This document shows positions 2,323-56,165 of a stretch of 64,000 nucleotides of DNA, one piece after another. Position 1 is the stretch's first letter. Each line of letters opens with the position of its first letter. The stretch covers positions 13,598 through 77,597 of the forward strand of contig JAJZWM010000001.1 of assembly GCA_021846665.1 (NCBI GenBank), in the 5' to 3' direction. A model generated the notes under the pieces. The model saw nothing but the letters and a program-made list of their open reading frames with translations, was not told the origin of the DNA and searched no databases. This stretch comes from Nanobdellota archaeon (GTDB lineage Archaea > Nanobdellota > Nanobdellia > Parvarchaeales > Parvarchaeaceae). The translations under genes and the position numbers were made by a program.

Positions 2323-5300
2323 TCATGGCCAATTTGTATAAGTTTTCTTTCCTATTATAGTTAAATTAGGGTATAATGTACTAAAATCATTATATAATTC
2401 ATTTATATTAAAGCTTGGAGGATAAGCTGAATAAGTTCCATTAAGAAGTGTTAGCTTAAATGGATTAATATTTATACACGCAAATTCCTCGGAATAAAGA
2501 TTTAAAGATGAATTATAGATATAAGGTGGTATAGGTTCTGTATTTGAAAGATTTAATCCTAAACTAGAGTAATGTGCATTGAAATTATGCTGTTCATTAT
2601 TTGGATAAAAAAATGTAAAAGGCTGACTATTTGTGTTTAAAGCATAAAAGAAGGGAAAAACTGAAGAGCCATTATCAGAGAACTTTCCGTTATAAGAAGC
2701 GCCTTGTCCATAAACTATGTACAATTCATTAGGTACATTTTTTGTAAGGTTAATCCACAATAAACCGCCATCTATTAGTGCTGTTTGATTCCACCAGTAA
2801 AGCTGTGAAACATTATTATTTGAATAGACACCAAATATCTTTAAGTAACCCGGGATTAAATAACCAAAATTAAAATTACTATTGAGATTAATCTCGAGCT
2901 GAAAACTATTAGAAAAGGAAGATTGATTTAGAATAATCTCATTAAAGTAGGTGTTATTATTAGTTTTAAGTCCAAATGAACTATTTAAAGAAGGATTAAG
3001 TTCTGATGATGGTGCATAAGCTAATTCCTTTTCTATAGGTTTATAAAATGGGATATAATTACTAACAAAGGCATAATTTATAAGATCAGAAGAAGACTTA
3101 GAAGTGGTTGATATACCTAATAGATTAATAGCAGAGGTAATCTGAGTAGAATTACTATAAAAGTTACTTTGAAGATTAGAATCTAGGTATGCAGTAAGAT
3201 TACAACCGTTGTTATCAATGCAATAACGATTAAAACTTAATTCATTTTGTGTATTAGGTGAGATATGATCATTAGAACCGCCTAGTAAAGTTGCCGAATC
3301 GGCCCTTATAGAATAGTTATATAATCCATCCGGATTTTGTACTGAATTAAATGATGCTGAAATAACATTATTTGATAAATCCTCTCCGTTAGAAAAGAAA
3401 GCACTTATGCCTGCGTAAGGGCCAGTTGAATTAAATCCAACATTAAAACTGAAATTTATAGGTAGATTTAAAGATCCATTATACAATACAAATGTTCTAT
3501 TATAAAATGAAAATTTAGCTAAATCTGCCCCACCCCCATAAACTGAAACAAGTCTATAGTTACTGCTTTGAGAAGTTGTGAAATTTTTGTTGTTTATTAC
3601 AAAGTAATCTGGGCAGGTATTACTACTCGTTATCCAGTTCTTATAAGAAAAGCTAGAAACTTTATAGTATGGGCAAAAATATTGACCATTTGACATTTTA
3701 GTGCAGTATTCTCCTCTTGGAGCTGAACTAGTGGAATTTAGGTATTTTTCCATTGTATAATTACTTGTCTGTAGACTAGTAATACAAGTATGATTTAAGA
3801 ATAACTGAGAGATAATGGGAGCACAATTAATATAAGTTAAGTTATTCGTTATCAGAGCCTCGGAAAACCCTGGATATCCGGTAGAATAAGGTGATTTTTG
3901 TATACCGCATGCTTCAGTTGGTGTTAAACTTAGATCATTTTGATAGCCAAAATCTAATGAGATGGGTATTCCGAGTATTTCTTCGGAGAAATTTCCACTT
4001 ATAGGTAAACTCTTTACTGAATATGAATAATTTGATTTTACAGTGTAATTACTCGCATTTGCACAGGAACTTACCTCACTTGCATTTATAGATAAGTTTA
4101 AAACATTTATGTTAAAATTAACGCCCGAAAGAAAAGTTAATTCCTGTGGCATCTGCTGCTGTAACAAAGCAATAATATCTTGAGATAAAGTAGAAGAGAG
4201 CAAATTCCTACAATAAGTTAAATCCGAGCTATTTTGCTCACAATTATATATATAAGTTCCATAATACGGCTCCTTTACTCTGTTTAATTTATTCAAGAGA
4301 TAACTTGTTCCCTGCGGAGATCCAAGCTGCAGAATTAATGCAGAATACCAGTCATATTTTGGTTTACCATTTACTGACACAGTTTTAAGATTTACAGCAT
4401 TTATAGCATTTGATATATAATTGTCTATTTCATATTGGGCAAAACCTTCTATTTTCTGGTTGCCAATTGGAAAACTTTGATTTACAAATGATATCCCCAA
4501 CTGCATTAACTGGCTAAGATAATTATCACCAGTTATAGAATCAGAAAGCGTAAGGCAATTTTGTAAATTGTACTGTCCTTCATTATAATTTACACAAACT
4601 TGCGGTGAGTACAATGGAAACAAAGAATACGAAACATAGAGATTCTGATCATTTGGGAATAAAAGATTCTGTGTGCCTGAATTCTGTATACTATTTAGGA
4701 TATATTTATAATAAACGAACTGAGGCTGTATCCCAAACATAACATAATTTGTAGGTTTTATTGTAAATATCCCACTTGTATTTGAAGTTACTGAAAAAGT
4801 ATAGTTTGTACCATCAAAAATAAATCCGCTCTTTGAATCATTAAAAAGTTGTATTTTACTAGGTATATTATTTGCTTTATCATAGGATATAACACTGTTA
4901 AATGTGTATAAATTTTCATTTGGCATAGGAGTTAGATAAAATGAAGTAATACCAGATATTGTATTTGTGTAGATTATTGCCACATTTCCATTTGGAAATG
5001 TAAGTAGGCTATATTGGCTTGATGGGGAAAGTCCAGATCCTTTGAAAAAAGCGCTAACCGCAGTTGCCTGACTTATTACTCCAGAAAGAACATCCTGCAA
5101 AGGCATAGAAGTAAATTCCATATTTGATAGGTTAAAATTAACTCCTAAAGGAACATTATGACTAACATAAACACAACTACTAAATATCCATTTACATACT
5201 GAAAAGGTAGCCGATGAAGTATTATACTGAAATTGATATTTATTGCTCAAAAACGGAGCAGAGAGATTACTGAAAAAAATAGTATTATTATGATTAGAAA

Positions 5301-5748
5301 GATTAAGCACAAGATTAGACTGTATAGTTATATTAGATGAATTTACAATTTCAAATGAATTTTCACTCAGCAGCGTTTCAAGGCCGTATTCTATTAAATT
5401 GTTATTTGGAAGACAGATTTGGCCTGCCAAATTTCTCCAATAATAAACTTTGGGGATAGGCACAAACGGTAATGATTGAGAAGTATTTATATAGCCACAG
5501 TCCAGAGTACTCGGTTGCAATGTCAAGCCATCAAAAAGCTCTGCTTTCTGAAAATTATAATTCGCTTCTTGCATAAGATAATCTTTTAAAGCGAGTGTTT
5601 GATAGATACTATTTTGAGCGGTTATCTCTATTTTTGAGCTAAGTCCAACATTTCCTATATAACCAAAGGCATTAAGTGTTATATATATTGTAGCAGCGAC
5701 CATCCCAAGAACCACAATCATGTTTGCCTGTCCTTTAGTATTTAGCAT
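2323..5748 (-). CDS. Giant (1141 aa) type IV pilin-like surface protein with class III signal peptide
   Basis: N-terminus MLNTKGQ/ANMIVVLGMVAATIYI: basic residue, then G-Q, then a hydrophobic stretch, as in archaeal prepilin signal peptides. Remainder Asn-rich with dense N-glycosylation sequons. Tightly packed in an operon (stop/start spacing of a few nt). Confidence 0.7.
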   Translation of the reverse strand: MLNTKGQANMIVVLGMVAATIYITLNAFGYIGNVGLSSKIEITAQNSIYQTLALKDYLMQEANYNFQKAELFDGLTLQPSTLDCGYINTSQSLPFVPIPKVYYWRNLAGQICLPNNNLIEYGLETLLSENSFEIVNSSNITIQSNLVLNLSNHNNTIFFSNLSAPFLSNKYQFQYNTSSATFSVCKWIFSSCVYVSHNVPLGVNFNLSNMEFTSMPLQDVLSGVISQATAVSAFFKGSGLSPSSQYSLLTFPNGNVAIIYTNTISGITSFYLTPMPNENLYTFNSVISYDKANNIPSKIQLFNDSKSGFIFDGTNYTFSVTSNTSGIFTIKPTNYVMFGIQPQFVYYKYILNSIQNSGTQNLLFPNDQNLYVSYSLFPLYSPQVCVNYNEGQYNLQNCLTLSDSITGDNYLSQLMQLGISFVNQSFPIGNQKIEGFAQYEIDNYISNAINAVNLKTVSVNGKPKYDWYSALILQLGSPQGTSYLLNKLNRVKEPYYGTYIYNCEQNSSDLTYCRNLLSSTLSQDIIALLQQQMPQELTFLSGVNFNINVLNLSINASEVSSCANASNYTVKSNYSYSVKSLPISGNFSEEILGIPISLDFGYQNDLSLTPTEACGIQKSPYSTGYPGFSEALITNNLTYINCAPIISQLFLNHTCITSLQTSNYTMEKYLNSTSSAPRGEYCTKMSNGQYFCPYYKVSSFSYKNWITSSNTCPDYFVINNKNFTTSQSSNYRLVSVYGGGADLAKFSFYNRTFVLYNGSLNLPINFSFNVGFNSTGPYAGISAFFSNGEDLSNNVISASFNSVQNPDGLYNYSIRADSATLLGGSNDHISPNTQNELSFNRYCIDNNGCNLTAYLDSNLQSNFYSNSTQITSAINLLGISTTSKSSSDLINYAFVSNYIPFYKPIEKELAYAPSSELNPSLNSSFGLKTNNNTYFNEIILNQSSFSNSFQLEINLNSNFNFGYLIPGYLKIFGVYSNNNVSQLYWWNQTALIDGGLLWINLTKNVPNELYIVYGQGASYNGKFSDNGSSVFPFFYALNTNSQPFTFFYPNNEQHNFNAHYSSLGLNLSNTEPIPPYIYNSSLNLYSEEFACININPFKLTLLNGTYSAYPPSFNINELYNDFSTLYPNLTIIGKKTYTNWP

Positions 5749-6333
5749 TTAATTTATCACCCCATAAATAGTATAAGGCTTCGAAGGATCTGCAGGGTTA
5801 TAAACCTGCATACTACACTTTGAACTACCTGTAACACCTGCAGGTATTTGATTTAAGAAGACCTGCATCCCGAGTGCTTTTAATGTAGCAGATTCCTGTC
5901 CTGTCAAAACCTTAAAATTACTTAGAGAAAACCCAGAAAAATAACCTATAAAATCGCTATAAAGAGAAGAAGAATTATAAAGAGAGGTTTGAATATAATT
6001 GTAATTTGAATCGCATGCCCCACTGCAATTTGTTGAAAGATACTGCTCTTTATTTGAATTTGCAAGAGCGTACTGACTTGAGGCATGTAATGCCAACTGA
6101 GACAAAGCAAACGCATTATGAACATAGTATGTACTGTACATTGTATCCAAAGCAAAATTACATGAAAATGAGACTGGCTGTTGACTTACTGCCGTTAACA
6201 GATTTGCAGTAGCACTGTGCAATAAAGCAGATGCTATTACTGCTAACACTACTGCAGCTAATGGTGCTAAAACTAGGTCCAGCATAGTAAGCTGGCCTTT
6301 TTTGCTCACTCTAACTGTAAGGTGGAATTCCAT
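5749..6333 (-). CDS. Small pilin-like protein (class III signal peptide); probable true start at the internal Met (MEFHLTVRVSKKGQ/LTMLDLV...)
   Basis: SKKGQ/LTMLDLVLAPLAAVVLAVIASALL matches the archaeal prepilin pattern [KR]-G-Q followed by a hydrophobic helix with an acidic residue near +5. Mature part ~170 aa with paired Cys. The ORF-track version (to 6390) extends upstream through an overlap with the preceding gene. The ATG at 6333 overlaps the upstream gene by only ~22 nt. Confidence 0.6.
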   Translation of the reverse strand: MEFHLTVRVSKKGQLTMLDLVLAPLAAVVLAVIASALLHSATANLLTAVSQQPVSFSCNFALDTMYSTYYVHNAFALSQLALHASSQYALANSNKEQYLSTNCSGACDSNYNYIQTSLYNSSSLYSDFIGYFSGFSLSNFKVLTGQESATLKALGMQVFLNQIPAGVTGSSKCSMQVYNPADPSKPYTIYGVIN

Positions 6334-7117
6334 AAGTAACCTGAACCTGTAATACGCCGCTGTTTTGAAAAGTCGGCTGTCCTTGTGCATTAGTAAATTG
6401 TATTTCTACGGGAAAACTTTCGGTATATGTATTTTCAGCGTAGAATATAGACGCTAAAGCATACTGTGGAGCTATTTCTGTAGTAGAATGTTGGCCTACT
6501 GCAAGGATTATATTAAACTGAATAGCTCCTCCCGTAGCAATCATAATTGCCAAACTAGAAGCTAAGCTTGCACCCATCGCAGCGTATTCTGCATTTTTTG
6601 CATATTTTTCTATTAAAGCTTCTGTCTGCTGAAAGCTTTCTCCAAAGTTAAATTGATTATAATTAGAAAGATACAAAGAACCAGTTGGACCAAGCTCGTT
6701 TGGATTTTGAGTATCAAACAAAGTTAATGAAACGCCCGTTGCAGCCTCAAGGTCTGACTGTAAGGCAGGTATATCTGTCGCTCCTCCAAAATAAATGTAT
6801 TGCATGCAAGAAAGAAAATAATTTTCAATGAATTTATTTATATTTACTACTCCAGGTTCGGTGTATGAAGATGAATATAATGGTCCGCCTGGAGCATCAA
6901 GACTTGAATTATAATAAGATATCGTATTTTTATAAGCAAAGCAATTTGGAGAAGTTATTAACCTTGTACCTATACCTGCCGCAACAGATTCCGAGTTTGC
7001 AAAAACACTTGTGCTATTTATCTGAGAAACGCTAAAAGATAATACCACTAATAAGAGAGCAAATGCAACTATTAGTATACCTGCATTCAAAAAAGCCATC
7101 ATCTCAACTAATGCCAT
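6311..7117 (-). CDS. Membrane-anchored protein of the pilin-like operon (N-terminal and C-terminal hydrophobic segments)
   Basis: 268 aa. N-terminus MALVEMMAFLNAGILIVAFALLLVVLSF is hydrophobic. A second hydrophobic stretch (ASLASSLAIMIATGGAIQFNIILAVG) lies near the C-terminus. Located between two pilin-like genes. Confidence 0.5.
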   Translation of the reverse strand: MALVEMMAFLNAGILIVAFALLLVVLSFSVSQINSTSVFANSESVAAGIGTRLITSPNCFAYKNTISYYNSSLDAPGGPLYSSSYTEPGVVNINKFIENYFLSCMQYIYFGGATDIPALQSDLEAATGVSLTLFDTQNPNELGPTGSLYLSNYNQFNFGESFQQTEALIEKYAKNAEYAAMGASLASSLAIMIATGGAIQFNIILAVGQHSTTEIAPQYALASIFYAENTYTESFPVEIQFTNAQGQPTFQNSGVLQVQVTYGIPPYS

Positions 7118-7123
7118 TTTTGC

Positions 7124-9568
7124 TCAACTCCTTGAAAAGTAAGTTCCTCCGGATGAATTTGGATTGTTCGGATAAACCCCGAAAACTAAACTATTATAAA
7201 CATTTCTTATATTATAATCTGTTGTATTAGCTTGTTGTGTTTTTGTAAATTCTAATGTTACATTTGAATAATCTGTTTCGTAGTATGAAAGATTCGTATC
7301 ATATGCAGATATAGCTATCATGGGAGAAATTAAGAAATTATCTAAAGATGTCGATGTACCAACTTGAAGTTTGGGGATACTTTTTCCAATAAAAGATGCA
7401 ATTAAGGAAGCCACTGGAAAATCTACACCGAAATCAACTTTCAGTTTTGGTTGACCGCCACCTATGAAATTACCTGCAGATAGAAAGCTGTTTTGCCCTA
7501 GAAGGTTAGTTGCAGTTAACTGATTTGGAAAATCCATTACAGGAACAGAAAAACCAAATAATGAACCATTGTTTATATAGAAATCCGAGTTATCTCCCAT
7601 ATTTTCCAATTCTGATAATTCATTTTGGGTTAAGTTTATATTAACTTTTCCATCGCTTAAATTTGTAATATTAACACATGATATTGGTGCACCATATTCA
7701 GTAACATTAAATGAGGGATTATTGAAATTGTTTGTATCTATTATTGGAGAGCCGAAAGAATCAATAAGCATCCTGTATATACAAAGATTTACATCGTTTT
7801 TCTGATTAGAGATAGCTAATGATTCTCCTGGTGGCAATAAAATTGTTATGTTTTTACTGCTTGCTTTTGAATTAAAAAGATTGTTGAGTTCTGTTTGAAG
7901 TGTATGTGGAAATAAGGCATTATTTTTTGAGCAAAGGGTATTGTAAAGCCCTTGAGATATAGAAAATGAGATAGAACCGTTACCACTTGGCTGTATAAGA
8001 GTCCTTAAATTCTGCCCTGAGTCTGCTGCAGTCTGTGCCAGTTCACACATATCATTCATATCTGTTATCAAAGGAGTAGTAACTTGTGTTGGTCTACCGC
8101 TTGACTGGCCGTTAAGGTATACCTCCCCGCCATATCCTACAAAATATGTCCCCAAAGGAAGAACGCTATTCACTTTTGTATATAAATTTATAAGCGTGGT
8201 AGCTGCACCTAGCTCAGATGATATCGAAGAAAATGCAGATCCAACTCCATTTGAGGTATAAGTCTTTAAATTTAAAGGCTGGGATGGAAGACTTAAGCAA
8301 CTAGCGGTTCTAGCATAAACTAGAAATGCATTCTGTGCAAGGAAAAATGGGATAGAAAGTAATGGATCTTTTCCACTTGATGACAACGCGACTGAACCTA
8401 TTAATGAACTTGAAGAACTTAAAGAACCTGGGGCTGAAACACCAGAAATTGGAGTTCCATAAAGATTATTTGAAGAAGCTGTAACTGCTGCATTAGAAAG
8501 TTCTGATAAGACATTCTGCTTTACAGTAACCTGCTTTGAAGTAAAGAGAATTAAAGTATCCTTTCCAATACCTGAAGGCAAAGAATTTAATGTCTGCTCG
8601 CTTGATAACAACTGAGAGTATTGCTGTAATACATAATCTGCTGCTGCGTACTTAAACGGTAATGGTGCCTGTGTAAGATATGCTGAAGCTATCTGTTGAC
8701 TTATTGATACAGATGGCCCTGTCAAAGCCCCGATTTGATGTCCATTTACATAAATTCCTTTAGTAACAAAGGTATTTAGGTTTCTACTATTAGTACCAAA
8801 CCAAGCCTCTATTATAGGAATAGATACTAAAGCTACAGAAAGAGATGCTACAGCGGTTGGTATAAGTATTTTCATACTTGGCAAAGCATCTCTTATATTT
8901 GAAAGACTACTAGAAAGAAGAGAATCCTCTGGAAGGTCTTGAAAAACCATTTCGTTTGCTTTACTACCTACAGCTATCAACCCATCAGATAATGCACTTT
9001 TTATCTTATATGATAAAATACCAAATTTTGTAAGTCCGGAGCTTTTTAAGTCGTCTGAAAGTTCTCCACGTAAGGCCGCGTCTGATAATTGAGCCTGTTC
9101 CTGCAAGATCGAATCTGCTTCCGTTGTCGCCTCATCTTTTGTGATCTGCGCAGCTTCATCGGTAGCTTCTTTTGCGGCATCTTCAGACCCGCCAACCCCC
9201 CCAAAACCGTATCCTATCATGAAACAAAGAGCAACACTAAAAACATTTTTACCCGAATCCAGAGTAGGGCCATTAGTGTATGATACATTATATACTTTAG
9301 ACCCGCCTGCACAGGTATAAGCGGATATTGATGGATCCCAAGTACACAATGAACTGTTTCCAGCTAGAGTAATAGACATTGAGGAAGGGGCACTATACAA
9401 AGAATTTATTGAAAAACCTATATTATTAGCGAATAACTGCAAAGATCTTGCGCCATTTTGAAAGAAAAGCCCCTGCAAATTAGCAAAATAAACTCCTACT
9501 AAAAGAAAGGCAGCAGATAAGATAATAACTCCTATACCTATAACTATCTGCGCCTTCTTAGTCAACAT
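7124..9568 (-). CDS. Giant (814 aa) type IV pilin-like surface protein with class III signal peptide; first gene of operon
   Basis: N-terminus MLTKKAQ/IVIGIGVIILSAAFLLVGVYFA (K-K-A-Q then hydrophobic helix). Contains an acidic low-complexity linker (DEAAQITKDEATTEADSILQEQAQLSDAALRGELSDD) and an internal hydrophobic segment (MKILIPTAVASLSVALVSIPII). Ser/Asn-rich. Confidence 0.7.
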   Translation of the reverse strand: MLTKKAQIVIGIGVIILSAAFLLVGVYFANLQGLFFQNGARSLQLFANNIGFSINSLYSAPSSMSITLAGNSSLCTWDPSISAYTCAGGSKVYNVSYTNGPTLDSGKNVFSVALCFMIGYGFGGVGGSEDAAKEATDEAAQITKDEATTEADSILQEQAQLSDAALRGELSDDLKSSGLTKFGILSYKIKSALSDGLIAVGSKANEMVFQDLPEDSLLSSSLSNIRDALPSMKILIPTAVASLSVALVSIPIIEAWFGTNSRNLNTFVTKGIYVNGHQIGALTGPSVSISQQIASAYLTQAPLPFKYAAADYVLQQYSQLLSSEQTLNSLPSGIGKDTLILFTSKQVTVKQNVLSELSNAAVTASSNNLYGTPISGVSAPGSLSSSSSLIGSVALSSSGKDPLLSIPFFLAQNAFLVYARTASCLSLPSQPLNLKTYTSNGVGSAFSSISSELGAATTLINLYTKVNSVLPLGTYFVGYGGEVYLNGQSSGRPTQVTTPLITDMNDMCELAQTAADSGQNLRTLIQPSGNGSISFSISQGLYNTLCSKNNALFPHTLQTELNNLFNSKASSKNITILLPPGESLAISNQKNDVNLCIYRMLIDSFGSPIIDTNNFNNPSFNVTEYGAPISCVNITNLSDGKVNINLTQNELSELENMGDNSDFYINNGSLFGFSVPVMDFPNQLTATNLLGQNSFLSAGNFIGGGQPKLKVDFGVDFPVASLIASFIGKSIPKLQVGTSTSLDNFLISPMIAISAYDTNLSYYETDYSNVTLEFTKTQQANTTDYNIRNVYNSLVFGVYPNNPNSSGGTYFSRS

Positions 9569-38069: not shown

Positions 38070-38100
38070 AGTTATCTTAAAATCTACAAGAATTTATACA

Positions 38101-41100
38101 TTAATTTACCTGTCCATTCAATGGGCCGATACTTTGAACGGGCATGATTCCATTAGGAGGATATGCTCTTGCTATAAGCCACCTAACATAGTTATAATCG
38201 TAACCCCCCCCTGTTCCGGCTGCAACCATTAAAGTAGGATAATTAAAAGCGGAAGGTATAGAGCCACTCATCGAAATTGGGATGTTTATATCAGAGAAAT
38301 TAGAAATAGAAGAGGATTTATTAATTACCCCTGCTTCTACAGTTGTACTACTACTTACTATTAATTTTTCAGTATAAGTTTGTGGAGTTATTGAAGGTAA
38401 GTTATTAACTGTAGAGATAATTTTATTATTCACGTTGTCCAATATTGCCGGTAAATATTTACCTGAACAATTCATCCCAACAGGTTCTACCATTAACATA
38501 ACTGAATCAGCAGATGCAACATTTCCACCACCGCATGTAACAACCGGTGCTCCGGTAACTGATGAAGTATCACCAAATAAGGAAAGAATCTCTCCATCGG
38601 TTGGACTGTCTCCGCCATAGAAATTCCAAGAGTATTCAACAATTACCGGCTCTTCTGGTAATTGATTTGGAGGTAGTATATGAGTCCCCTCACTTGGTGT
38701 ATCATTTGTCATCTCTATACCATTAGGAGTAGCTACAGGAGTAAAGCTACCACCTGTTACATAAGGTGTCCAACCATCAAAACCAGAAGTATTAAGGAAA
38801 TCTCCATAGGATAAAAATACATTTTGTCCATCATCATATTCCCCATATATTGATGATAATTGAGGAGATTCACCATCATTAGTTTTATTAAACAGACTTA
38901 TATTTGGTAACGCAAAACCCATGAATGCAACATAAGATTCTCTAGGTTGTAGATTACCTAACTTCAGCCAATAATTTGTTGAAGTACTAGCAGACGAAAC
39001 GCCATTAAATGTAATATTGTTTATTGATAAAGTATTATGACCATTCTGCTGATTCCCATTTCCAGATAGAAGATACCATGCAATTAATCCAGAGCTATTT
39101 AAAGGTGATCCTGCAACGCCTTCATCATAAAGAAGAGCTACCTTTGAAGGTGAAAATACCTGATTATAAAACTGAACATTTGATATATACCCCTTGAAAT
39201 AGAAATTACTGTTATTTGTATTTGCCCAATTATTAGTATACCCTTCACCGATAGTCCAGTAAGTTGGAGAACAAGTTTGTGGTGTACCAGAATAAGTTGC
39301 TATTTCTATTCCATTTAAGTACAAAATCTGTTGTGAGGATGTTTGTACAATTGTGACAGAATTCCACTTTCCATTAGCTACAAAATGATTCGTATTAAAC
39401 GGCTGAGAACCTACCCAATCACCACCTGCCAAATCTCCGTTTTTATTTACATATATAATTGGGCTATAACAGCCTCCAGAAGAAACTTGCTTTAAATCAC
39501 CATTCCATAGAACAACACCATCACTGGTTGTCTTAAACCAAGCACTTATAGTAAATGTACCTGCTGTACCAAAAGGGTAATTCTCTGGTAGATTTGCATA
39601 GCTATTTGCGCCATTGAAATAAGCCAGGTCCCCTGAACTTAACCATGAAGGAATAACACTTCCACTTGGTGAGAAAAATTCAACGTTACTAAGGGTGTTA
39701 TTTTCAAAGATATTATAATCAAAAGAATTTATTGATAAGTTATCCTGGAATACATTAGGAGTTGCAGATGATTGAAGATTTGTTATAAATACCGGTACAA
39801 ATTCCTTCACATTTTTAGGTATATTAGCTACTGCCTCCCAGTAGGTTTGATTTGCCAGATTTGATTGATTAGAAAAAACAGTTATGTTATACAAACCTGC
39901 AGACAAAGGCTTTTGATAAGATAGACTTGCAGAACCTAAAGGGACTGCTACAGAACCGTTTATCATTAAACCTATATGACTAGCATGTATACCAAAAGCC
40001 GTTATATTCGTTATATCTCCAGAAGCTATACCATTATTTCCGTCTTTAACTCCATTTACAAAAACAGTAATCTGCGGTTCTATAGGACCAAAAGTTACAG
40101 AAGGCATAACTCCATTTGGAGGAGCGGAGGGAGAGTAATAATCTATTGCATTATTAGACCACATTGCCGTATAAGCGCCACCGCCATCTTCATAATAATC
40201 TAATTCTATTCTCTGTGTTCCAATTGAAGAGATAGTACCTAAATAAGTTGTAAAGCCTTCGGTATGCCATTGACTTACAAGATTATTTGGATTTGATGTT
40301 CCGCCTAACCAATAAGCTCCATTTCCTCCTGCAGGAGATGTTGAATAACCTAATGCTATACCATCGTCAGAACCTACGTAGAATGTTGTAGATGAATTAA
40401 CCTCAGCCCAGCCTATTGCCTTTATTATCCATGAATTTCCTGTATTTGATACGGGGGGATTTGGATAAGCTGCCCCGCCACTGTATCCTTCCTGATAATT
40501 CATTATTACATTACTTTCAGTTGTTCCATCTACATCTTGTGAACTGCCAATAGGGGAGGTATAAAATGGTTTAGTTGATGAAGACATTGGTGCACATGAA
40601 TTTATTGTAACGCCGTTGTTTAAGGCAGCTGCATACACATTATTCTGGTAACTTCCACTATTACAAGCCCCACTTGGATCGAAGTAAATTTGATACTCTA
40701 AGCCTTTATTCATAACGTTGCCTATATCATCATATTCACCATATGTTGAAGAAAGCTGCGGTGCTTCACCATCATTAACATTGTTAAATAAATTTGTGGA
40801 CTTGGATGCAAAACCCATATAAACTGTTATAGAAGACCTAACAGGTATACCACTGATTTTAAGCCAATAAACTGAACTTGTAGCTGTATTAGAATTTCCA
40901 GATTCTAGCCATGAATTTATAATTGTTCCATTGGGATAAAAGAATTCTACATTCTGTAGGTTAGACGCTTCATACTGCTGATAATTCGCAGAATTAACAA
41001 CTACTTCCTGCTGAAAAGGAGAAGAAGTTGAAATTGATTGATTATTTTTTATAGTCAAAGGAACAAAATTTAAAATACCTTTAGGAATCAGCAGAAGTTG

Positions 41101-41799
41101 TTGCGGAAGAAAACATGATGGGCTTATTATATTAAGAGAGCTAACATATATTTCAGCAACTGAATTTGGAGGGAATTGACCGCCATTACTAGGAGTTATA
41201 CTACCAGAGTAATAACCAGATAAAGTGCTTTCATTCTGCTCTGCCACCATTTTGTTATCATTATATATTATGATAGTAAAATTCACGTCACCAACTAAAT
41301 TACCGTTAGTATCAAGAAAAGAAACGTTATAAAGAATACTTGAAGGATTATAAATATAGGAAGTTGAAATGTAGGATATTGGTAAATCCATAGATATTTG
41401 TGCTTCTGGCCTACCGTTCTCTTTTACAAGTGTTACTCTACCAACGTAAGTTCCAGAACTTACTGGAAGTTCCCCCGTTGTATACAAAGATAATGATTGA
41501 GAGGCTTCTTCTCCCCCAAATGACAAAGATACAGATGTATTACAAATTGAAGAAACCAAATTTAAACCTGGAGAAGAAAAACTGAATTGCTGCGAGGAAC
41601 CAACAGCGCTTTCAGATAATGAATTTACTGCATTTGCTATGCTTTTAGCCGCCAATTGAAGATCTTGTGAAGTACCTGCTGAATTGTAACCTATCTGGTA
41701 GTATATAGCATATGATATAGCTGCACCAAGTATAAATATAGCTATACCCATTACTAACAGATATTCTAAGGAAGACTGGCTTTTTGATCCAATTTGCAT
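38101..41799 (-). CDS. Giant (1232 aa) class III signal-peptide surface protein. Internally duplicated. Two DUF2341-like modules, the second interrupted by a concanavalin A/LamG-like domain
   Basis: N-terminus MQIGSKSQ/SSLEYLLVMGIAIFILGAAISYAIYY (archaeal pilin-like Q-x-x-L-E-Y-L-L motif). Module 1 at ~aa 245-364 (PLTIKNNQSISTSSPFQQ...NVEFFYPNGTIINSWLESG...VYWLKISGIP...VYMGF...DGEAPQLSSTYGEYDD). Module 2 at ~aa 668-995 with an inserted FTISAWFKTTSDGVVLWNG LamG-like segment. Two occurrences of the PPNG-[VI]-MP-x-x-x-x-GP motif (aa ~560 and ~1215). Confidence 0.7.
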   Translation of the reverse strand: MQIGSKSQSSLEYLLVMGIAIFILGAAISYAIYYQIGYNSAGTSQDLQLAAKSIANAVNSLSESAVGSSQQFSFSSPGLNLVSSICNTSVSLSFGGEEASQSLSLYTTGELPVSSGTYVGRVTLVKENGRPEAQISMDLPISYISTSYIYNPSSILYNVSFLDTNGNLVGDVNFTIIIYNDNKMVAEQNESTLSGYYSGSITPSNGGQFPPNSVAEIYVSSLNIISPSCFLPQQLLLIPKGILNFVPLTIKNNQSISTSSPFQQEVVVNSANYQQYEASNLQNVEFFYPNGTIINSWLESGNSNTATSSVYWLKISGIPVRSSITVYMGFASKSTNLFNNVNDGEAPQLSSTYGEYDDIGNVMNKGLEYQIYFDPSGACNSGSYQNNVYAAALNNGVTINSCAPMSSSTKPFYTSPIGSSQDVDGTTESNVIMNYQEGYSGGAAYPNPPVSNTGNSWIIKAIGWAEVNSSTTFYVGSDDGIALGYSTSPAGGNGAYWLGGTSNPNNLVSQWHTEGFTTYLGTISSIGTQRIELDYYEDGGGAYTAMWSNNAIDYYSPSAPPNGVMPSVTFGPIEPQITVFVNGVKDGNNGIASGDITNITAFGIHASHIGLMINGSVAVPLGSASLSYQKPLSAGLYNITVFSNQSNLANQTYWEAVANIPKNVKEFVPVFITNLQSSATPNVFQDNLSINSFDYNIFENNTLSNVEFFSPSGSVIPSWLSSGDLAYFNGANSYANLPENYPFGTAGTFTISAWFKTTSDGVVLWNGDLKQVSSGGCYSPIIYVNKNGDLAGGDWVGSQPFNTNHFVANGKWNSVTIVQTSSQQILYLNGIEIATYSGTPQTCSPTYWTIGEGYTNNWANTNNSNFYFKGYISNVQFYNQVFSPSKVALLYDEGVAGSPLNSSGLIAWYLLSGNGNQQNGHNTLSINNITFNGVSSASTSTNYWLKLGNLQPRESYVAFMGFALPNISLFNKTNDGESPQLSSIYGEYDDGQNVFLSYGDFLNTSGFDGWTPYVTGGSFTPVATPNGIEMTNDTPSEGTHILPPNQLPEEPVIVEYSWNFYGGDSPTDGEILSLFGDTSSVTGAPVVTCGGGNVASADSVMLMVEPVGMNCSGKYLPAILDNVNNKIISTVNNLPSITPQTYTEKLIVSSSTTVEAGVINKSSSISNFSDINIPISMSGSIPSAFNYPTLMVAAGTGGGYDYNYVRWLIARAYPPNGIMPVQSIGPLNGQVN

Positions 41800-41803
41800 A
41801 AGA

Positions 41804-42409
41804 TTAATTATCCTTTATATTAAAGAACTTATCAACAATCTTATTTATTCTTTGACTTACCTCTTCGACTGTGCCTTTAGCATTCACTTTTTTGAGATGA
41901 AACTCCTTTGCTATTGACAGATATGCTTGTCTAACTTTTGATATCTTTTCAACGTTGCCAAAAAGCTGTATACCGTCTACTTGTTTTTCGGCTCTTAATA
42001 AGGAAGTTTTAGGATCTAAATCCAAATATATACCTAAATCTGGTTTCCTAAAACTTATGTTTACAGAACGAAGCCATTTATAATTTATATTAGACGCAAA
42101 ACCATATGCTAAAGTTGAGAAGAAATATCTGTCACATACTACAATAAAACCATCCTGCATTGCAGGCTCTATTTCCGTATCTAAATGATGCGCCCTATCG
42201 GCACAGAAAATAAGCTGCAGAGCTTTATCTGAAAGATTAAGTTCTTTGTTTAATGCCGCCTTTGATATTCCTCCTAAAATACCATTTGTTGGTTCCTTTG
42301 TCAAAAGAACCTTGAATCCTCTGGATCTTAAATACTCTGCCAGAAGAACTGACTGTGTGCCTTTTCCAGCATTATCTATTCCTTCTATTACTATAAATTT
42401 TCCTTTCAT
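41804..42409 (-). CDS. tmk: Thymidylate kinase
   Basis: 201 aa. P-loop IEGIDNAGKGTQS. DRYFFSTLAYG (DRY...S..AY). Lid region. PDLGIYLD. Confidence 0.75.
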   Translation of the reverse strand: MKGKFIVIEGIDNAGKGTQSVLLAEYLRSRGFKVLLTKEPTNGILGGISKAALNKELNLSDKALQLIFCADRAHHLDTEIEPAMQDGFIVVCDRYFFSTLAYGFASNINYKWLRSVNISFRKPDLGIYLDLDPKTSLLRAEKQVDGIQLFGNVEKISKVRQAYLSIAKEFHLKKVNAKGTVEEVSQRINKIVDKFFNIKDN

Positions 42410-42411
42410 AG

Positions 42412-43020
42412 TTAATCAATAGCTTTTTTTATTAAATAAGATATCTCTTCTATGCTTTTGCTCCCGTCTATCTCTTCCCAGGATTTAGCATAAAAACTCT
42501 CATTTTTTAATTTATCATAAAAAGTTGAAACATTGAAAAGAAAATTTTTATTGCTTTCAAATTTGTCGACATCCATCTTTCCCTTCTGTTTTTCCTTTCT
42601 CTGCATTGAGATATCAACAGGTACATTTACGTAAAACACTTTATCTACTACTGGCATATCTAAAAGCTTTACAATTTCTTTTCCATTTTCATAAGAAAAG
42701 CCACCTGCTGATTGATAAGCTATAGTAGAAAAGAAGAATCTATCTATTATAATATAACTTCCATTATTTACATCTTCTATTATATTACTTCTATCCTTTA
42801 CCATATCAATTATGTAAAGCATAAAAAGCTCATCTACTTTTAGGTTTATCTTTTTATATAGAAATGATTTTATCCTTTCCCCATAAATAGAAGAATAATC
42901 GGGATAAGAATATATTGAAACCTTCTTTCCTTCTTTTTCCAGTGTTTCTTTTAAAATTTTGGCTTGTGTAGCTTTCCCAGCACCATCTATTCCTTCTATT
43001 ACTATTATTTTTCCAGCCAT
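42412..43020 (-). CDS. Thymidylate kinase paralog (second Tmk-family nucleoside monophosphate kinase)
   Basis: 202 aa. P-loop IEGIDGAGKATQA. DRFFFSTIAYQ. Tandem with tmk and directly upstream of PolD DP1 (1-3 nt gaps). Confidence 0.65.
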   Translation of the reverse strand: MAGKIIVIEGIDGAGKATQAKILKETLEKEGKKVSIYSYPDYSSIYGERIKSFLYKKINLKVDELFMLYIIDMVKDRSNIIEDVNNGSYIIIDRFFFSTIAYQSAGGFSYENGKEIVKLLDMPVVDKVFYVNVPVDISMQRKEKQKGKMDVDKFESNKNFLFNVSTFYDKLKNESFYAKSWEEIDGSKSIEEISYLIKKAID

Positions 43021-52757: not shown

Positions 52758-55700
52758 TTAACTCTCTAAAGCAACAACTGCATCATTTGGTGAAGAACAT
52801 TGTCCTCCGCCGCTACCCGTTCCTCCTGAAACTGAATATATGCCGACAGGCAGGTTTATATTAGTTGCAGCTGAGGATATACACCAATTAGTAGTGCTTT
52901 CAGATGAGATACTTGTACCAGTTAAGGTATTTGTTAAATCATAAGTTATATAATCAGGTGAACCTGCTGCCCAATAAATATTCGCATTGCCTCCCGACCA
53001 AGTAACTGCAAAATCATAGTTCTGGTTATTATTACCAGTAATATCTGCATACCCTACTGGAGTTATTCCCCCAAAACTTGTAGATGGCATTGAACCACCT
53101 GGAGGATAATCCCTGGCGAATATCCAATTATAGAAAATTTTTTCTGCATACTTACCAGCTATTCCAGTATATGAAAGTGAAGCGAAGTAAAGTGGGCCAG
53201 ACAATGTAAACCCTGTATTTAAGGAAGTAGAATATCCTGTCCCACTATTAACGTATTCTGGTAAATTACCAACATAAGAAGCATAAGATGAACCACCAGT
53301 ATATGTTAGTTCTGCATAATCCCAATTTGAATTTGCTACACCATTTTCATTATTTCCTTCAGAATATGTACCTCCCCTAGCTACGCCGGTACAGTATGTA
53401 TGTATACCACATGAATACCTATATGTATACACATAATCATCTTTGGCATAATCTTGGTATTCTAGATAACATGTTGAAGAACTACAATCATTAACATTAA
53501 CTCCTCCAGACTGAGTACCTATACCATAATAAGAATTATAGTTTCCATTACTGTCATTAGTTAAACCTAATACACCATTATCTGAACCTAATGCGTTTTC
53601 TATATTAAAGTTAGTTTCTAATATCAATGGAGAATTTGAAAAACTAGAATCACTATAAGCCGTCATAACAGAACCTCCTGCAGGTGAACCTATAGAACCA
53701 TCTAAATAAATAGCGGTTATAGATTCACCTGAATTATAAGAAACAGAAGGATGACTAAAACTAATAGAAACGGAATCGAAATTAGTACTAAAACCAGATG
53801 TACTTGATTCACCATTCAAATAAAAGTTAAAAACATTTCCGCCATTATCATATTCTCCGTATGTACTGGATAATTGAGGAGCTTCTCCTACCTGACCAGG
53901 ATACTGTGAAAAGAAATTTGTTGATGGAAGACCAAAGCCCATATATATAACTGCAGTGGAGTATGAGCCTATAGAGAAGGGAAGACTAAGCCAGTAAGTT
54001 GTGCTGCTGTAAGTACTATTACCGAGTTCTAACCATGAAGATATTATCTGACCCGAAGATGTGAAGAAAAGAACATTCTGCATGTTATTACTTTCAAATT
54101 CACCGTAATTATTTGCATTAAATTCTATCCTCTGCTGAAAACCATTAGAAGTTGACTGAGATTGAGAATTATCTATAGTTATAGGAACATAAAAGATTAC
54201 TCCTGATGGAACGGAAGTTGGAGACTGCTGAGAATAATCTATATTGCTATTTGTACCTGCAAGAACTGAAGATGGAGAGTTTGACTGCGTGTACTTTTGA
54301 CCTGATGATGTTAATAAATCGCCAGGTATATATACACTTTCAGTTCCTGGAATTGAACTTGCAGACAAAGATGTTGAGCTTCCAGTAGGTTCATTTGAAC
54401 CAATTATCACTGCCCAGTTTGTCCCACTGCTTAGACCGCTCTCTGTAAATGTGGTAACACAGTCCCAGTAATTTACACTAAATATATTTATACTCCCTTC
54501 TAAATATCCTACGCTTGTAGCATTATAATTACACCCAGTATTTTCTACATTCGCCTGAGTCACAGGCTCATAAGAAACTGTAGTTATTCCTGTAGTAGTT
54601 ATTGGTATTGAATTTGTCACTGAAGAATATGAAGACTGTGCACCAGTATATGTTACTCTCCAATCATAAGAATTGTAGGAAGAAGGCAATCCTGAACTAA
54701 AGATAGTTACACATGTCCATGGTGTAAACTGTACTGTATCGCCCATCTGCACCGATGATAAAGCAGAACTGCAATCAAGATTATCACTTACTGCACTAGC
54801 AGAATAGCTTTCAACAGTAACTACATTATTTCTTTTAAATACAGCATTGCTGCCTACACTTAAAAATGAGTCTGTAGATCCATTATAAGATGCATTCCAT
54901 TTACCGCCTGATGGCAGAGCTGTTTCAGTGAATGTTGTAGTACAGCTCCATGGATTGAAGTTATTTCCTGATGAGCCCTGCTGAGCTGTTGTTGAACTTG
55001 TGCAATTCAATTCATTCAAAGGATAGCCTGATGATGAAGCTCTATAATAGGACACTACAGGTATATTTGTCTGTAATATTGATATTGCACCGCCTGTAGA
55101 AACCGTAGGACTAGAAGAACCATCATAATTTGTTATATACCACTGCTTTCCTGAAGGTAAGCCTGTTTCTGTAAAGGTTGTAGTACAGTTCCATGCGCTG
55201 AATGTGTAGCTGCTGCCTAATCTTACTGAAGGGTTATTATATGAAACACATGCAAGATTGTCACTTTTAGCAGTTGCAGTGTAATAAACCTGTGCATTAT
55301 TGATATTATCTGTCTTTATGTTTATTGCCGAGCCTGTGGAATTGCTTTTAGTTGTTCCATTGAATGTTACTTGCCAATTCTGATTGGAAGGCAATCCTGT
55401 TTCTGTAAAGGTTGTAGTACAGTTTGAAGTGAATGCTATTATATCCCTTACCCCCGTTGAATGATAGCCTGATGAAGGTACTGGCTTACTGATACAGCCC
55501 TGATATGTAACCGAGGGAACTGAAAAATAGTAATTACCAAAGGGTAAATTGAAGGAAACGTTGTCTTTTATGCTTGAAACTATTGTTGAATTTGTTGATG
55601 TATTGTAATTTACAGTAAATGTACTGCCATACGGCAATCCTTTCTCTATGAAATAAGTTAACTGGTTGTTTATTGGTATTGCGCCACTTACTAACGTAGA

Positions 55701-56165
55701 TGATACTGTACCGTTTGATACTTCATATATGCTTGATTTATAGGGTGTAAATGATATCTGTACCTTTGAAATATAACTTGTTGTAGGTATACTCACAGGT
55801 ACTCTGCACAGAGTAGATTGGCCGGTTGATATTATGCTATCCAGGCAGTAGAAGGTCGTATATGTATTTCCATTGACATTTACTGTTATACCTGTAACAT
55901 TTATAAACTGATTGTAATTGTTTGTTATCTTGACTACCATCATTGTTGAATTTGCTTCTGCCGCCTGCATTGTTATTCCTTTAAAACCGCTTATTATTGT
56001 AGGTGCTGCCGGTACTTTGAAAACTCCTAATGAGAAAAGTATTACCAATACTAACACTATTATGATTAGAACCCAGCCCCAGCTCATTAAATAATCCAGT
56101 GCTGCCTGAGCACTTCTTCCCTTACTAATAGTTTTTCTAGTTTTTTTATTTATAGTGGAAGGCAT
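52758..56165 (-). CDS. Giant (1135 aa) class III signal-peptide surface protein with 5-6 tandem Cys-bounded Ig-like repeats, one DUF2341-like module and a Cys-rich C-terminal region
   Basis: N-terminus ...SKGRSAQ/AALDYLMSWGWVLIIIVLVLVILFSLGVF matches the archaeal pilin N-terminal consensus (A-Q-x-A-[LM]-[ED]-Y-L-M-[ST]-[WY]-G-W..). Repeats contain W-[ND]-C-T-T-T-F-T-E-[TS]-G-L-P-S-G at aa ~170-620. Module PITIDNSQSQSTSNGFQQ...NVLFFTSSGQIISSWLELG...YWLSLP...IYMGF...GEAPQLSSTYGEYDNGGNVF at aa ~662-782. C-terminal FARDYPPGGSMP motif is shared with the 1232-aa protein. Confidence 0.7.
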   Translation of the reverse strand: MPSTINKKTRKTISKGRSAQAALDYLMSWGWVLIIIVLVLVILFSLGVFKVPAAPTIISGFKGITMQAAEANSTMMVVKITNNYNQFINVTGITVNVNGNTYTTFYCLDSIISTGQSTLCRVPVSIPTTSYISKVQISFTPYKSSIYEVSNGTVSSTLVSGAIPINNQLTYFIEKGLPYGSTFTVNYNTSTNSTIVSSIKDNVSFNLPFGNYYFSVPSVTYQGCISKPVPSSGYHSTGVRDIIAFTSNCTTTFTETGLPSNQNWQVTFNGTTKSNSTGSAINIKTDNINNAQVYYTATAKSDNLACVSYNNPSVRLGSSYTFSAWNCTTTFTETGLPSGKQWYITNYDGSSSPTVSTGGAISILQTNIPVVSYYRASSSGYPLNELNCTSSTTAQQGSSGNNFNPWSCTTTFTETALPSGGKWNASYNGSTDSFLSVGSNAVFKRNNVVTVESYSASAVSDNLDCSSALSSVQMGDTVQFTPWTCVTIFSSGLPSSYNSYDWRVTYTGAQSSYSSVTNSIPITTTGITTVSYEPVTQANVENTGCNYNATSVGYLEGSINIFSVNYWDCVTTFTESGLSSGTNWAVIIGSNEPTGSSTSLSASSIPGTESVYIPGDLLTSSGQKYTQSNSPSSVLAGTNSNIDYSQQSPTSVPSGVIFYVPITIDNSQSQSTSNGFQQRIEFNANNYGEFESNNMQNVLFFTSSGQIISSWLELGNSTYSSTTYWLSLPFSIGSYSTAVIYMGFGLPSTNFFSQYPGQVGEAPQLSSTYGEYDNGGNVFNFYLNGESSTSGFSTNFDSVSISFSHPSVSYNSGESITAIYLDGSIGSPAGGSVMTAYSDSSFSNSPLILETNFNIENALGSDNGVLGLTNDSNGNYNSYYGIGTQSGGVNVNDCSSSTCYLEYQDYAKDDYVYTYRYSCGIHTYCTGVARGGTYSEGNNENGVANSNWDYAELTYTGGSSYASYVGNLPEYVNSGTGYSTSLNTGFTLSGPLYFASLSYTGIAGKYAEKIFYNWIFARDYPPGGSMPSTSFGGITPVGYADITGNNNQNYDFAVTWSGGNANIYWAAGSPDYITYDLTNTLTGTSISSESTTNWCISSAATNINLPVGIYSVSGGTGSGGGQCSSPNDAVVALES
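54300..55660. repeat. Intragenic tandem repeats (~230-bp period) encoding the TFTETGLPSG Ig-like domains
   Basis: DNA-level recurrence of cctgtttctgtaaaggttgtagtacag (55167-55193, 55396-55422) and variant ctgtttcagtgaatgttgtagtacag (~54925-54950). Confidence 0.7.

Follow-up and report, generated by a model that had tools for sequence, protein, structure and literature searches.

A candidate modular-pilin adhesin with strain-variable head domains at a fixed locus of Candidatus Parvarchaeum

RESULTS

Locus and source lineage

We analyzed a 64,000-nucleotide stretch of archaeal DNA (here called the window; positions 13,598 to 77,597 of contig JAJZWM010000001.1, assembly GCA_021846665.1) and focused on the gene at 38101..41799 on its minus strand, which encodes a 1232-residue candidate surface adhesin. 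The open reading frame (ORF), already called in a preliminary description of the window, is present, and a second assembly independently yields a 99%-identical protein (P0001). Homologs come from sources named Candidatus Parvarchaeum, Parvarchaeota, Micrarchaeota, and Thermoplasmatales. A genome scan recovered an ortholog in Candidatus Parvarchaeum acidiphilum ARMAN-4 (86% identical over residues 1 to 359), as well as further orthologs in many Parvarchaeota metagenome-assembled genomes (MAGs). Because of these homologs and orthologs, we assign the source organism to the ARMAN-4/5-type DPANN archaea, with a guanine-plus-cytosine (GC) content of ~33%. A "Candidatus Micrarchaeota" MAG includes one 3.3-kb contig (L013; JAKACK010000034.1) with 99% identity to the first 360 residues. 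The other close orthologs are all Parvarchaeota or Parvarchaeum, some of them labeled Nanoarchaeota, and the Micrarchaeota label is probably a binning or labeling discrepancy.

The neighborhood is a housekeeping one, as the preliminary description had stated. The small subunit of PolD and two thymidylate kinases (tmk) lie on one flank of the gene, while pyruvate kinase (pyk) and then the L3-L4-L23 ribosomal operon lie on the other. The earlier view that the gene had been inserted between pyk and the tmk-PolD genes had to be abandoned, since every orthologous locus examined has it in this position. From PolD-DP1 through tmk, tmk, adhesin gene, and pyk to L3-L4-L23, the gene order is the same in loci whose orthologs are 85%, 67%, 56%, and 53% identical, and the gap to the upstream tmk is 1 to 8 nucleotides or an overlap. 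Because gene order is preserved down to 53% identity, we conclude that the genus has kept this gene in place by vertical inheritance and that it is not an insertion. The GC content of the gene is 0.354 to 0.357, compared to 0.286 to 0.367 in the rest of the window. Other family members are single genes dispersed among housekeeping genes; in Thermoplasmatales, one contig has further large proteins of no assigned function after the homolog.

The two tandem thymidylate kinase paralogs (41804..43020, minus strand) lie directly upstream, and the pair is kept in every Parvarchaeum locus examined. AT-rich, TATA-like boxes occur ~15 to 30 nucleotides upstream of the start codons of both the adhesin gene (TTTAATATAAA; 41800..41830, minus strand) and pyk (TGTATAAATT; 38070..38100, minus strand), and no obvious Shine-Dalgarno sequence was seen by eye at either gene. 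Read by eye in a genome of 33% GC, these weak signals agree with leaderless transcripts made separately from each gene, as opposed to a shared operon.

Domain architecture

The protein is divided as follows, from the N terminus onward.

38101..41799, minus strand: whole coding sequence, 1232 residues; uninterrupted in the ORF list, with the stop codon at 38101-38103.
41779..41799, minus strand: leader peptide MQIGSKS, residues 1-7; in register with family N termini, with a predicted prepilin-peptidase cut before Q8.
41623..41778, minus strand: pilin-type alpha-1 helix, residues 8-59; QSSLE motif and ~24 hydrophobic residues, with an amphipathic stretch following; helix at 10-59 in the AlphaFold2 model, with a predicted local distance difference test score (pLDDT) of 70-96.
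41089..41622, minus strand: beta-sandwich body, residues 60-237; all-beta in the model, with Cys86 and Cys229, ending in SPSCFLP.
40720..41088, minus strand: DUF2341-like module 1, residues 238-360; sub-cutoff match to PF10102, self-match to module 2, 52% identity to a paralog.
40132..40719, minus strand: head 1, residues 361-556; PA14-fold, lectin-like, variable cassette with invariant D478-D479.
40075..40131, minus strand: clasp 1, residues 557-575, PSAPPNGVMPSVTFGPIEP; self-match to residues 1214-1231, hhalign probability 83%, 82% conserved among orthologs.
39838..40074, minus strand: immunoglobulin (Ig)-like spacer, residues 576-654; beta strands in both structure models, ~81% conserved among orthologs.
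39619..39837, minus strand: DUF2341-like module 2, first half, residues 655-727; self-match to residues 238-302.
39025..39618, minus strand: Laminin_G_3 (LamG)/concanavalin A (ConA)-like insert in module 2, residues 728-925; PF13385 and Foldseek matches.
38800..39024, minus strand: DUF2341-like module 2, second half, residues 926-1000; self-match to residues 294-377.
38170..38799, minus strand: head 2, residues 1001-1210; variable cassette marked by a drop in identity among orthologs to 19-29% and by matches to phrog_7548 and to gp10 of Sulfolobus monocaudavirus SMV1.
38104..38169, minus strand: clasp 2, residues 1211-1232, ARAYPPNGIMPVQSIGPLNGQVN; BLAST self-match and hhalign, with W, R, PP, and G invariant in the alignment of head-2-type sequences.

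The composition of the protein differs from that of its neighbors. Lysine and arginine together make up 2.8% of residues, compared to 12 to 18% in the cytoplasmic neighbors, and asparagine, serine, and threonine account for 30%. N-glycosylation sequons occur at 1.9 per 100 residues versus ~0.5 in the neighbors, an approximately 4-fold enrichment, and the eight cysteines form four pairs, one pair per domain. Taken together, these features fit an extracellular glycoprotein of an acidophile.

A complete pilin-sized domain at the N terminus

The sequence begins with MQIGSKS followed by QSSLEYLLVMGIAIFILGAAI, which conforms to the class III signal motif QxSxExxxL (here QSSLEYLLV), so that the pilin-like N terminus proposed earlier is borne out. 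The layout expected of such signals is satisfied by MQIGSKS/QSSLEYLLVMGIAIFILGAAISYAIYY, with a short charged leader, glutamine at +1, serine at +3, glutamate at +5, and ~20 hydrophobic residues. In an alignment of 24 family N termini, Q8 is invariant and E12 is at least 90% conserved. Six of these 24 match Class_IIIsignal (PF04021; best E = 1.8e-6) and two match Arch_flagellin, while Pfam scans of the isolated N terminus and of the pilin-like domain of the window protein returned no match. The AlphaFold2 model of residues 1 to 660 (mean pLDDT, 84.6; predicted template modeling score, 0.65) shows a 50-residue helix (10-59) followed by beta-sandwich domains.

Relatives of residues 1-237 are scarce, with only 38 found among 1.84 billion cluster representatives in an exhaustive HMMER search. 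Thirteen of the 38 are stand-alone proteins of 226 to 237 residues that match residues 1-237 end to end. These small proteins start with K[KR]AQFTTEY and end in SSCF.P, as do residues 226-233 of the 1232-residue protein. Residues 1-237 thus correspond to a whole stand-alone protein of pilin size, with the rest of the protein grafted on. The arrangement is that of a modular pilin, in which the N-terminal part is a complete pilin and extra domains come after it, with the small relatives being the presumed true pilins.

Two module-head-clasp units

Self-comparison confirmed that the module occurs twice. Residues 238-302 match 660-724 (48% identity, E = 1.6e-14), and residues 294-377 match 926-1006 (48% identity, E = 4e-17), with ~200 residues interrupting the second copy. 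The internal duplication is therefore real and not compositional. The interrupting segment is the LamG domain that the preliminary description had placed there: PF13385 matches residues 729-888 with significant scores of 54.2 and 57.4 bits (cutoff, 27.6) over profile positions 1-151 of 151. The PPNG[VI]MP motif, also noted previously, recurs at residues 560 and 1214, and clasp 2 carries ARAYPPNGIMP.

Two earlier statements required revision. First, the protein had been described as a tandem duplication of a ~600-residue unit. However, neither BLAST nor profile-profile comparison detects similarity between head 1 (361-556) and head 2 (1001-1210); in the profile-profile comparison, only the 18-residue clasp aligns (probability 83%). 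The protein is therefore not a duplicated ~600-residue unit. The repeat unit is instead ~340 residues long and consists of a module, a head, and a PPNGxMP clasp, with unit 1 at residues 238-575 and unit 2 at 655-1232. The overall build is thus a pilin-sized domain and two units, with a ~80-residue Ig-like spacer between the units. Second, the assignment of the module to DUF2341 holds for the family but not by the protein's own score. PF10102 matched one copy only, with 18.5 bits for the whole protein and 21.1 bits for the excised region, and the gathering cutoff of 23.4 was not reached. Among 40 aligned family fragments, 19 match the same model at E ≤ 0.01 (best, 4.3e-7), and precomputed matches exist for orthologs P0007, P0015-17, P0019, and P0021. 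Family-level homology to DUF2341 is therefore sound despite the sub-threshold score of the window protein.

Lectin-type domains

Head 1 aligns with Foldseek probability 1.00 to the PA14 domains of Candida Epa1, yeast Flo1/Flo5, and the Marinomonas and Lap adhesins. As a single sequence it retrieved nothing useful from PDB sequences and had no Pfam match. A profile of 17 diverse heads, in turn, matched the RsgI3 PA14 dyad among PDB sequences (E = 6.8e-5), with the canonical ...Y.F....DDG... and ...Y.I...Y.....W segments aligned. Head 1 combines the PA14 fold with an invariant D478-D479 pair, at a position that we take to be the DcisD calcium/sugar site of Flo5 and Epa1.

The LamG part also reaches Foldseek probability 1.00, against laminin LG, neurexin LNS, and pentraxin jelly rolls. 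The insert ends (residues ~905-925; ~39025..39087) in GLIAWYLLSGNGNQQNGHN, for which relatives have W[WY]PL.GN..DYSGN.NNG. This ending resembles the usual lead-in of a Laminin_G_3 repeat, which suggests that the insert derived from LamG domains in tandem.

For head 2, PDB sequences gave no relative, whether searched with a single sequence or with a profile, and Pfam gave none either, since the profile finds only residual DUF2341 there. The model of residues 557-1232 (overall pLDDT, 70.9) is good in its LamG part, and Foldseek aligns it to tandem LG pairs, with a jelly-roll hint coming from the low-confidence region of head 2. The idea that head 2 is a divergent LamG domain was unsupported by sequence, with an hhalign probability of 0.1 between the profiles of head 2 and the LamG insert. 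Word-indexed homolog searches with single heads recovered few proteins. An NCBIfam scan of the protein returned only TafC on the LamG part (20.9 bits against a cutoff of 410), which we disregarded. Neither model contains a beta-propeller of the PilY1 kind, and whole-protein Pfam searches gave only Laminin_G_3, DUF2341, and a weak 3keto-disac_hyd match.

Head replacement between strains

The heads are replaced wholesale between strains, while the scaffold is constant. In an alignment of 22 orthologs, identity to the window protein is 70 to 90% over the scaffold (residues 1-360 and 557-1000) and 13 to 30% over residues 361-556 and 1001-1200. Individual orthologs match the window protein at one head or the other.

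P0002: head 1, 56% identity; head 2, 98%.
P0003: head 1, 87% identity; head 2, 30%.
P0008: head 1, 16% identity; head 2, 68%.
P0021: head 1, 74% identity; head 2, 17%; N-terminal domain only 47% identical.

Nucleotide comparisons locate the boundaries. The DNA alignment with the P0008 locus ends at residue 358 and restarts at 559; that with the P0003 locus (L007) ends at residue 996, restarts at 1210, and runs on into pyk. Against the P0002 locus (L008), nucleotide identity is 83% over residues 1-360, 58% over 361-560, and 98% over 561-1232.

Clustering all heads of 23 orthologs yielded 16 head types, which are combined in many ways. Three of the types, A (PA14-like), B, and D, were each seen in both places, at position 1 of certain proteins and position 2 of different ones; for type D, the single detected head of P0011 lies at residues 979-1161 and is hence read as position 2. 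There are also unit genes that stand on their own and encode ~300 to 335 residues, including P0122 and P0124 (head 1 type) and P0126 and P0127 (head 2 type, with 93% and 82% identity). In another MAG (L006:5283-6842; GCA_027369955.1, contig DAICLC010000032.1), a canonical 159-residue pilin gene (KRSQSALEYMMTYGWAILIIVIV...) precedes the gene for the 332-residue P0126, which has a head with 93% identity to head 2 and is the immediate upstream neighbor of pyk. From residue 973 onward, the L006 contig is 98.1% identical to the window, and before that it is unrelated. The junction falls inside the repeated module and reflects either real recombination or an assembly chimera. The presence of many head types in one socket is robust, while individual head combinations need long-read confirmation. 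A parallel to this variability is the high nonsynonymous diversity of surface proteins in Nanoarchaeota.

A related unit in an archaeal virus

Residues 976-1223 match phrog_7548, a family of unknown function (E = 2.4e-17). Among GenBank phage records, matches were confined to Sulfolobus monocaudavirus SMV1 and SMV1a. The SMV1 protein, gp10 (CDF81337.1; L011:2873-7525; HG322870.1, 12117..16769), has 1550 residues; its SMV1a (L012) counterpart comes in two parts, gp10-1 and gp10-2. A whole unit is present in SMV1 gp10, recognizable from TNSQSIATPAPFDQ..., WVKLPNGIPASSS..., YDNGANVF..GWT..GSFTPTPTTNGLEMINN..., and PPNNVMP, and the head of this unit is related to head 2 (36% identity over 141 residues). 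Pfam did not find DUF2341 in SMV1 gp10, and a scan of IMG/VR returned no related viral contigs. In SMV1, gp10 is flanked by gp09 and gp11, which a published listing places among the abundant virion proteins.

Other surface proteins of the window

The window encodes a second member of the family, which the preliminary description had proposed for comparison.

52758..56165, minus strand: paralog, 1135 residues; class-III-like N terminus, TFTETGLPS repeats, and one unit (module at 652-780, head, and ARDYPPGGSMP at 1021).

The comparison revealed a motif common to both proteins, with the modules 52% identical (E = 1e-31). Residues ~240-470 of the paralog hold at least three ~80-residue repeats marked C-TTTFTETGLPS(N/G)..W, probably Ig-like stalk domains with one cysteine each, and a ~100-residue extension follows the PPGG clasp. 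There are several paralogs per genome.

Elsewhere, four codirectional ORFs at 2323..9568 (minus strand) encode proteins of 814, 268, 213, and 1141 residues with N-terminal hydrophobic helices and no Pfam match. One of them carries a class-III-like signal, KKGQLTMLDLVLAPL..., and the two whose composition was measured (814 and 1141 residues) are low in charge and rich in N, S, and T like the adhesin. The cluster may be a second pilin or surface-protein cluster.

DISCUSSION

A candidate modular-pilin adhesin

The reading we favor, although our confidence in it is about evenly divided, is that the gene encodes a secreted, glycan-binding "modular pilin" adhesin of Candidatus Parvarchaeum (ARMAN-4/5 group), carried on a type IV pilus-like filament or anchored by its pilin helix. 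An archaeal prepilin peptidase would cut the seven-residue leader off before Q8. The alpha-1 helix (8-59) and beta-sandwich (60-237) would then cap or join a filament, perhaps at its tip, or at a minimum hold the protein in the membrane. From there, a stalk of beta-sandwich modules would present three lectin-type domains: the PA14-fold head, the LamG/ConA-like domain, and head 2. In yeast and bacterial PA14 adhesins, the Asp-Asp pair binds Ca2+ and sugar. By analogy, the lectin-type domains may bind glycans on Thermoplasmatales host cells, on other cells, or in biofilm matrix. Each head would occupy a constant socket, formed by a DUF2341-like module on one side and a PPNGxMP clasp on the other, from which recombination between strains may swap it, changing ligand specificity with the scaffold held constant; such a change is a plausible selective reason for the exchange. 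Both carbohydrate binding and pilus association are inferred from folds and motifs. The core of the preliminary description, including a predicted carbohydrate-binding surface adhesin, survives every test that we ran, with binding itself a prediction. In favor of a pilus, Parvarchaeota MAGs are reported to encode a VirB11-type ATPase and TadC (PMC7779479).

Several observations weigh against this reading. At the N terminus, the window protein has no match of its own to PF04021 in scans at E ≤ 10 and E ≤ 1, and the residue at -1 is serine, not glycine or alanine. The gene is not adjoined by genes for pilus assembly, a prepilin peptidase, or a major pilin, either in the window or in any of the orthologous loci examined, and its surroundings in the window lack a pilus ATPase, TadC, a peptidase, and a small pilin. 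A subunit of 1232 residues cannot be a major pilin. Regarding the heads, neither PA14 (PF07691) nor GLEYA (PF10528) of Pfam matched at E ≤ 10 in the excised head 1 or in 40 family members, such that the PA14 assignment rests on the fold and one profile match. Head 2 was modeled poorly (pLDDT 40-70) and has no assigned fold. Carboxylate-based binding of Ca2+ and sugar would probably be unfavorable in acid mine drainage, where the pH is very low. Finally, some of the mosaic combinations could be assembly chimeras formed at the conserved scaffold in strain-mixed metagenomes.

Alternative readings

It is possible, but on balance rather unlikely, that the protein never enters a filament. According to this main rival, it would be an extracellular lectin protein that is tethered by its N-terminal helix or that forms part of a short pseudopilus or bindosome-like assembly, an adhesin or receptor projecting through the cell wall. 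Sugar-binding proteins of Sulfolobus carry class III signals and are not known to form pili. The bindosome is mentioned in a census of type IV pili (PMC4858521). The lack of pilus genes near the gene in any locus, the dispersal of family genes singly among housekeeping genes, and a size that is very large for a pilin all fit a tethered protein. They have to be set against three points that favor a filament: residues 1-237 amount to a complete stand-alone family of pilin-sized proteins, the glutamate at +5 that is typical of filament-packing subunits is conserved, and bacterial modular pilins of comparable design sit at the tip.

A broader extension of the adhesin reading is more doubtful, and we offer it tentatively. 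The heads may be determinants of host range or ligand specificity, in which case at least 16 interchangeable cassettes in the DUF2341-module/PPNGxMP socket would be exchanged between strains, positions, stand-alone unit genes, and archaeal viruses (SMV1 gp10). This would amount to a "receptor-binding cassette" system shared by DPANN symbionts, Thermoplasmatales, and archaeal viruses, comparable to the swapping of phage tail-fiber tips.

We consider it unlikely that the gene encodes a structural cell-wall or S-layer protein of Parvarchaeum. Low charge, richness in N, S, and T, and many sequons are typical of archaeal envelope glycoproteins, and constitutive high expression would be in keeping with the place that the gene has beside a ribosomal-protein operon in each of the genomes examined. 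Yet no S-layer model in NCBIfam or Pfam matched. The S-layer protein of Micrarchaeum is described as having S-layer domains of the TIGR01564/TIGR01567 type, and the NCBIfam scan of the 1232-residue protein found no family of that type. Moreover, the wholesale replacement of two domains between close strains is hard to square with a lattice former, and the presence of several paralogs per genome also speaks against one.

Quite improbable, too, is a surface polysaccharide-processing protein in which the PA14 and LamG domains serve as carbohydrate-binding modules for an unrecognized catalytic head 2. Glycosidases often carry PA14 and ConA-like domains, GH31, GH2, and GH43 enzymes are among the structural matches, and head 2 is without an assigned fold. 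But searches of Pfam, NCBIfam, and PDB profiles returned no catalytic family, and head 2 is one of many interchangeable, nonhomologous heads, which is unlike a conserved catalytic core. Least credible, and in our view very improbable, is a virus-derived gene left by a provirus, for although the phrog_7548 match and the module, head-2-type domain, and PPNNVMP clasp of SMV1 gp10 point to a viral connection, the synteny with core genes is kept down to 53% identity, GC content hardly departs from the values elsewhere in the window, the flanks contain no other viral genes, the scan of IMG/VR returned no related contigs, and transfer in the opposite direction, from cell to virus, has at least the same likelihood.

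Implications

On the question of how ARMAN and other DPANN archaea recognize and attach to their hosts, a genomic survey of Parvarchaeota turned up few candidate proteins for cell-cell interaction (PMC7779479), and this gene family provides concrete candidates for adhesion to hosts or biofilm. Its members combine a pilin-type anchor, three lectin-type domains, and a strain-level swap of precisely those domains that are the putative binders, a pattern that a specificity determinant would be expected to show. Since the heads are small and contain disulfides, the question of host recognition could be tested without culturing the organism. DUF2341 would gain a structural role on this reading, as a socket presenting variable binding domains, and the module-head-clasp unit links cellular adhesins with a large protein of a spindle-shaped archaeal virus. 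Such an adhesin is not surprising in principle, yet it is a concrete, testable candidate for host recognition in DPANN archaea.

The protein itself is already in the databases, and orthologs have been deposited under the names "LamG-like jellyroll fold domain-containing protein" or "DUF2341 domain-containing protein." In the papers on DUF2341 and on DPANN archaea that we consulted, we did not find described the pilin fusion, the module-head-clasp socket, the PA14-type head, the combinatorial exchange of heads in a syntenic Parvarchaeum gene, or the unit shared with SMV1 gp10.

Comparison with known systems

Large DUF2341 proteins in the Epd pilus loci of Methanococcus have been proposed as tip adhesins (Makarova, Koonin & Albers 2016, PMC4858521), and in M. 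maripaludis one DUF2341 gene was recovered in a screen for transformation defects (PMC10133366). By description, these MJ1470-type proteins resemble the Parvarchaeum protein as large secreted archaeal proteins with DUF2341-type modules, tied to the biology of class III signals and type IV pili and with a proposed adhesin role. However, the Epd genes lie inside pilus operons, whereas the Parvarchaeum gene stands alone among housekeeping genes. In addition, the Parvarchaeum protein, unlike the Epd proteins, has a fused pilin-sized domain, PA14-like and LamG parts, and heads that are swapped between strains.

Other comparisons concern single parts of the protein. Set beside the PA14 adhesins (Candida Epa1/Epa6, yeast Flo1/Flo5, Marinomonas MpIBP, Lap RTX, and RsgI3), head 1 is only 8 to 19% identical, lacks the Pfam PA14/GLEYA match, and belongs to an organism whose acidic habitat may disallow Ca2+-dependent binding. 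SMV1 gp10 is viral, has 1550 residues with no pilin-like N terminus detected, and comes from a virus of a crenarchaeal host, but it has one complete unit in common with the Parvarchaeum protein, built from a DUF2341-like module, a relative of head 2, and a PPNNVMP clasp.

In overall design, the protein can be likened to the modular pilins of bacteria. PilC of Streptococcus sanguinis carries a ConA-like lectin module at the pilus tip (PMC9934059), and PilB is a second modular pilin of this kind (PMC8179133). As in the Parvarchaeum protein, a class III signal and a pilin moiety are followed in PilC by Ig-like and ConA-like lectin modules; PilC binds glycans and is modeled at the tip. PilC differs in being bacterial and unrelated in sequence, in having one lectin module versus three lectin-like domains, and in having neither a DUF2341 socket nor a PPNG clasp, and no exchange of cassettes has been described for it. 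Among episymbiotic Saccharibacteria, Nanosynbacter lyticus TM7x has PilX1 and PilX2, lectin-like minor pilins for host binding, for which host cell-wall glycans matter (PMC11623550). These proteins belong to Patescibacteria, have jelly-roll and beta-propeller folds, are encoded in pilus loci, and are backed by genetic evidence. The likeness is that of an ultrasmall episymbiont equipped with large minor pilins that end in lectin-like C-terminal domains.

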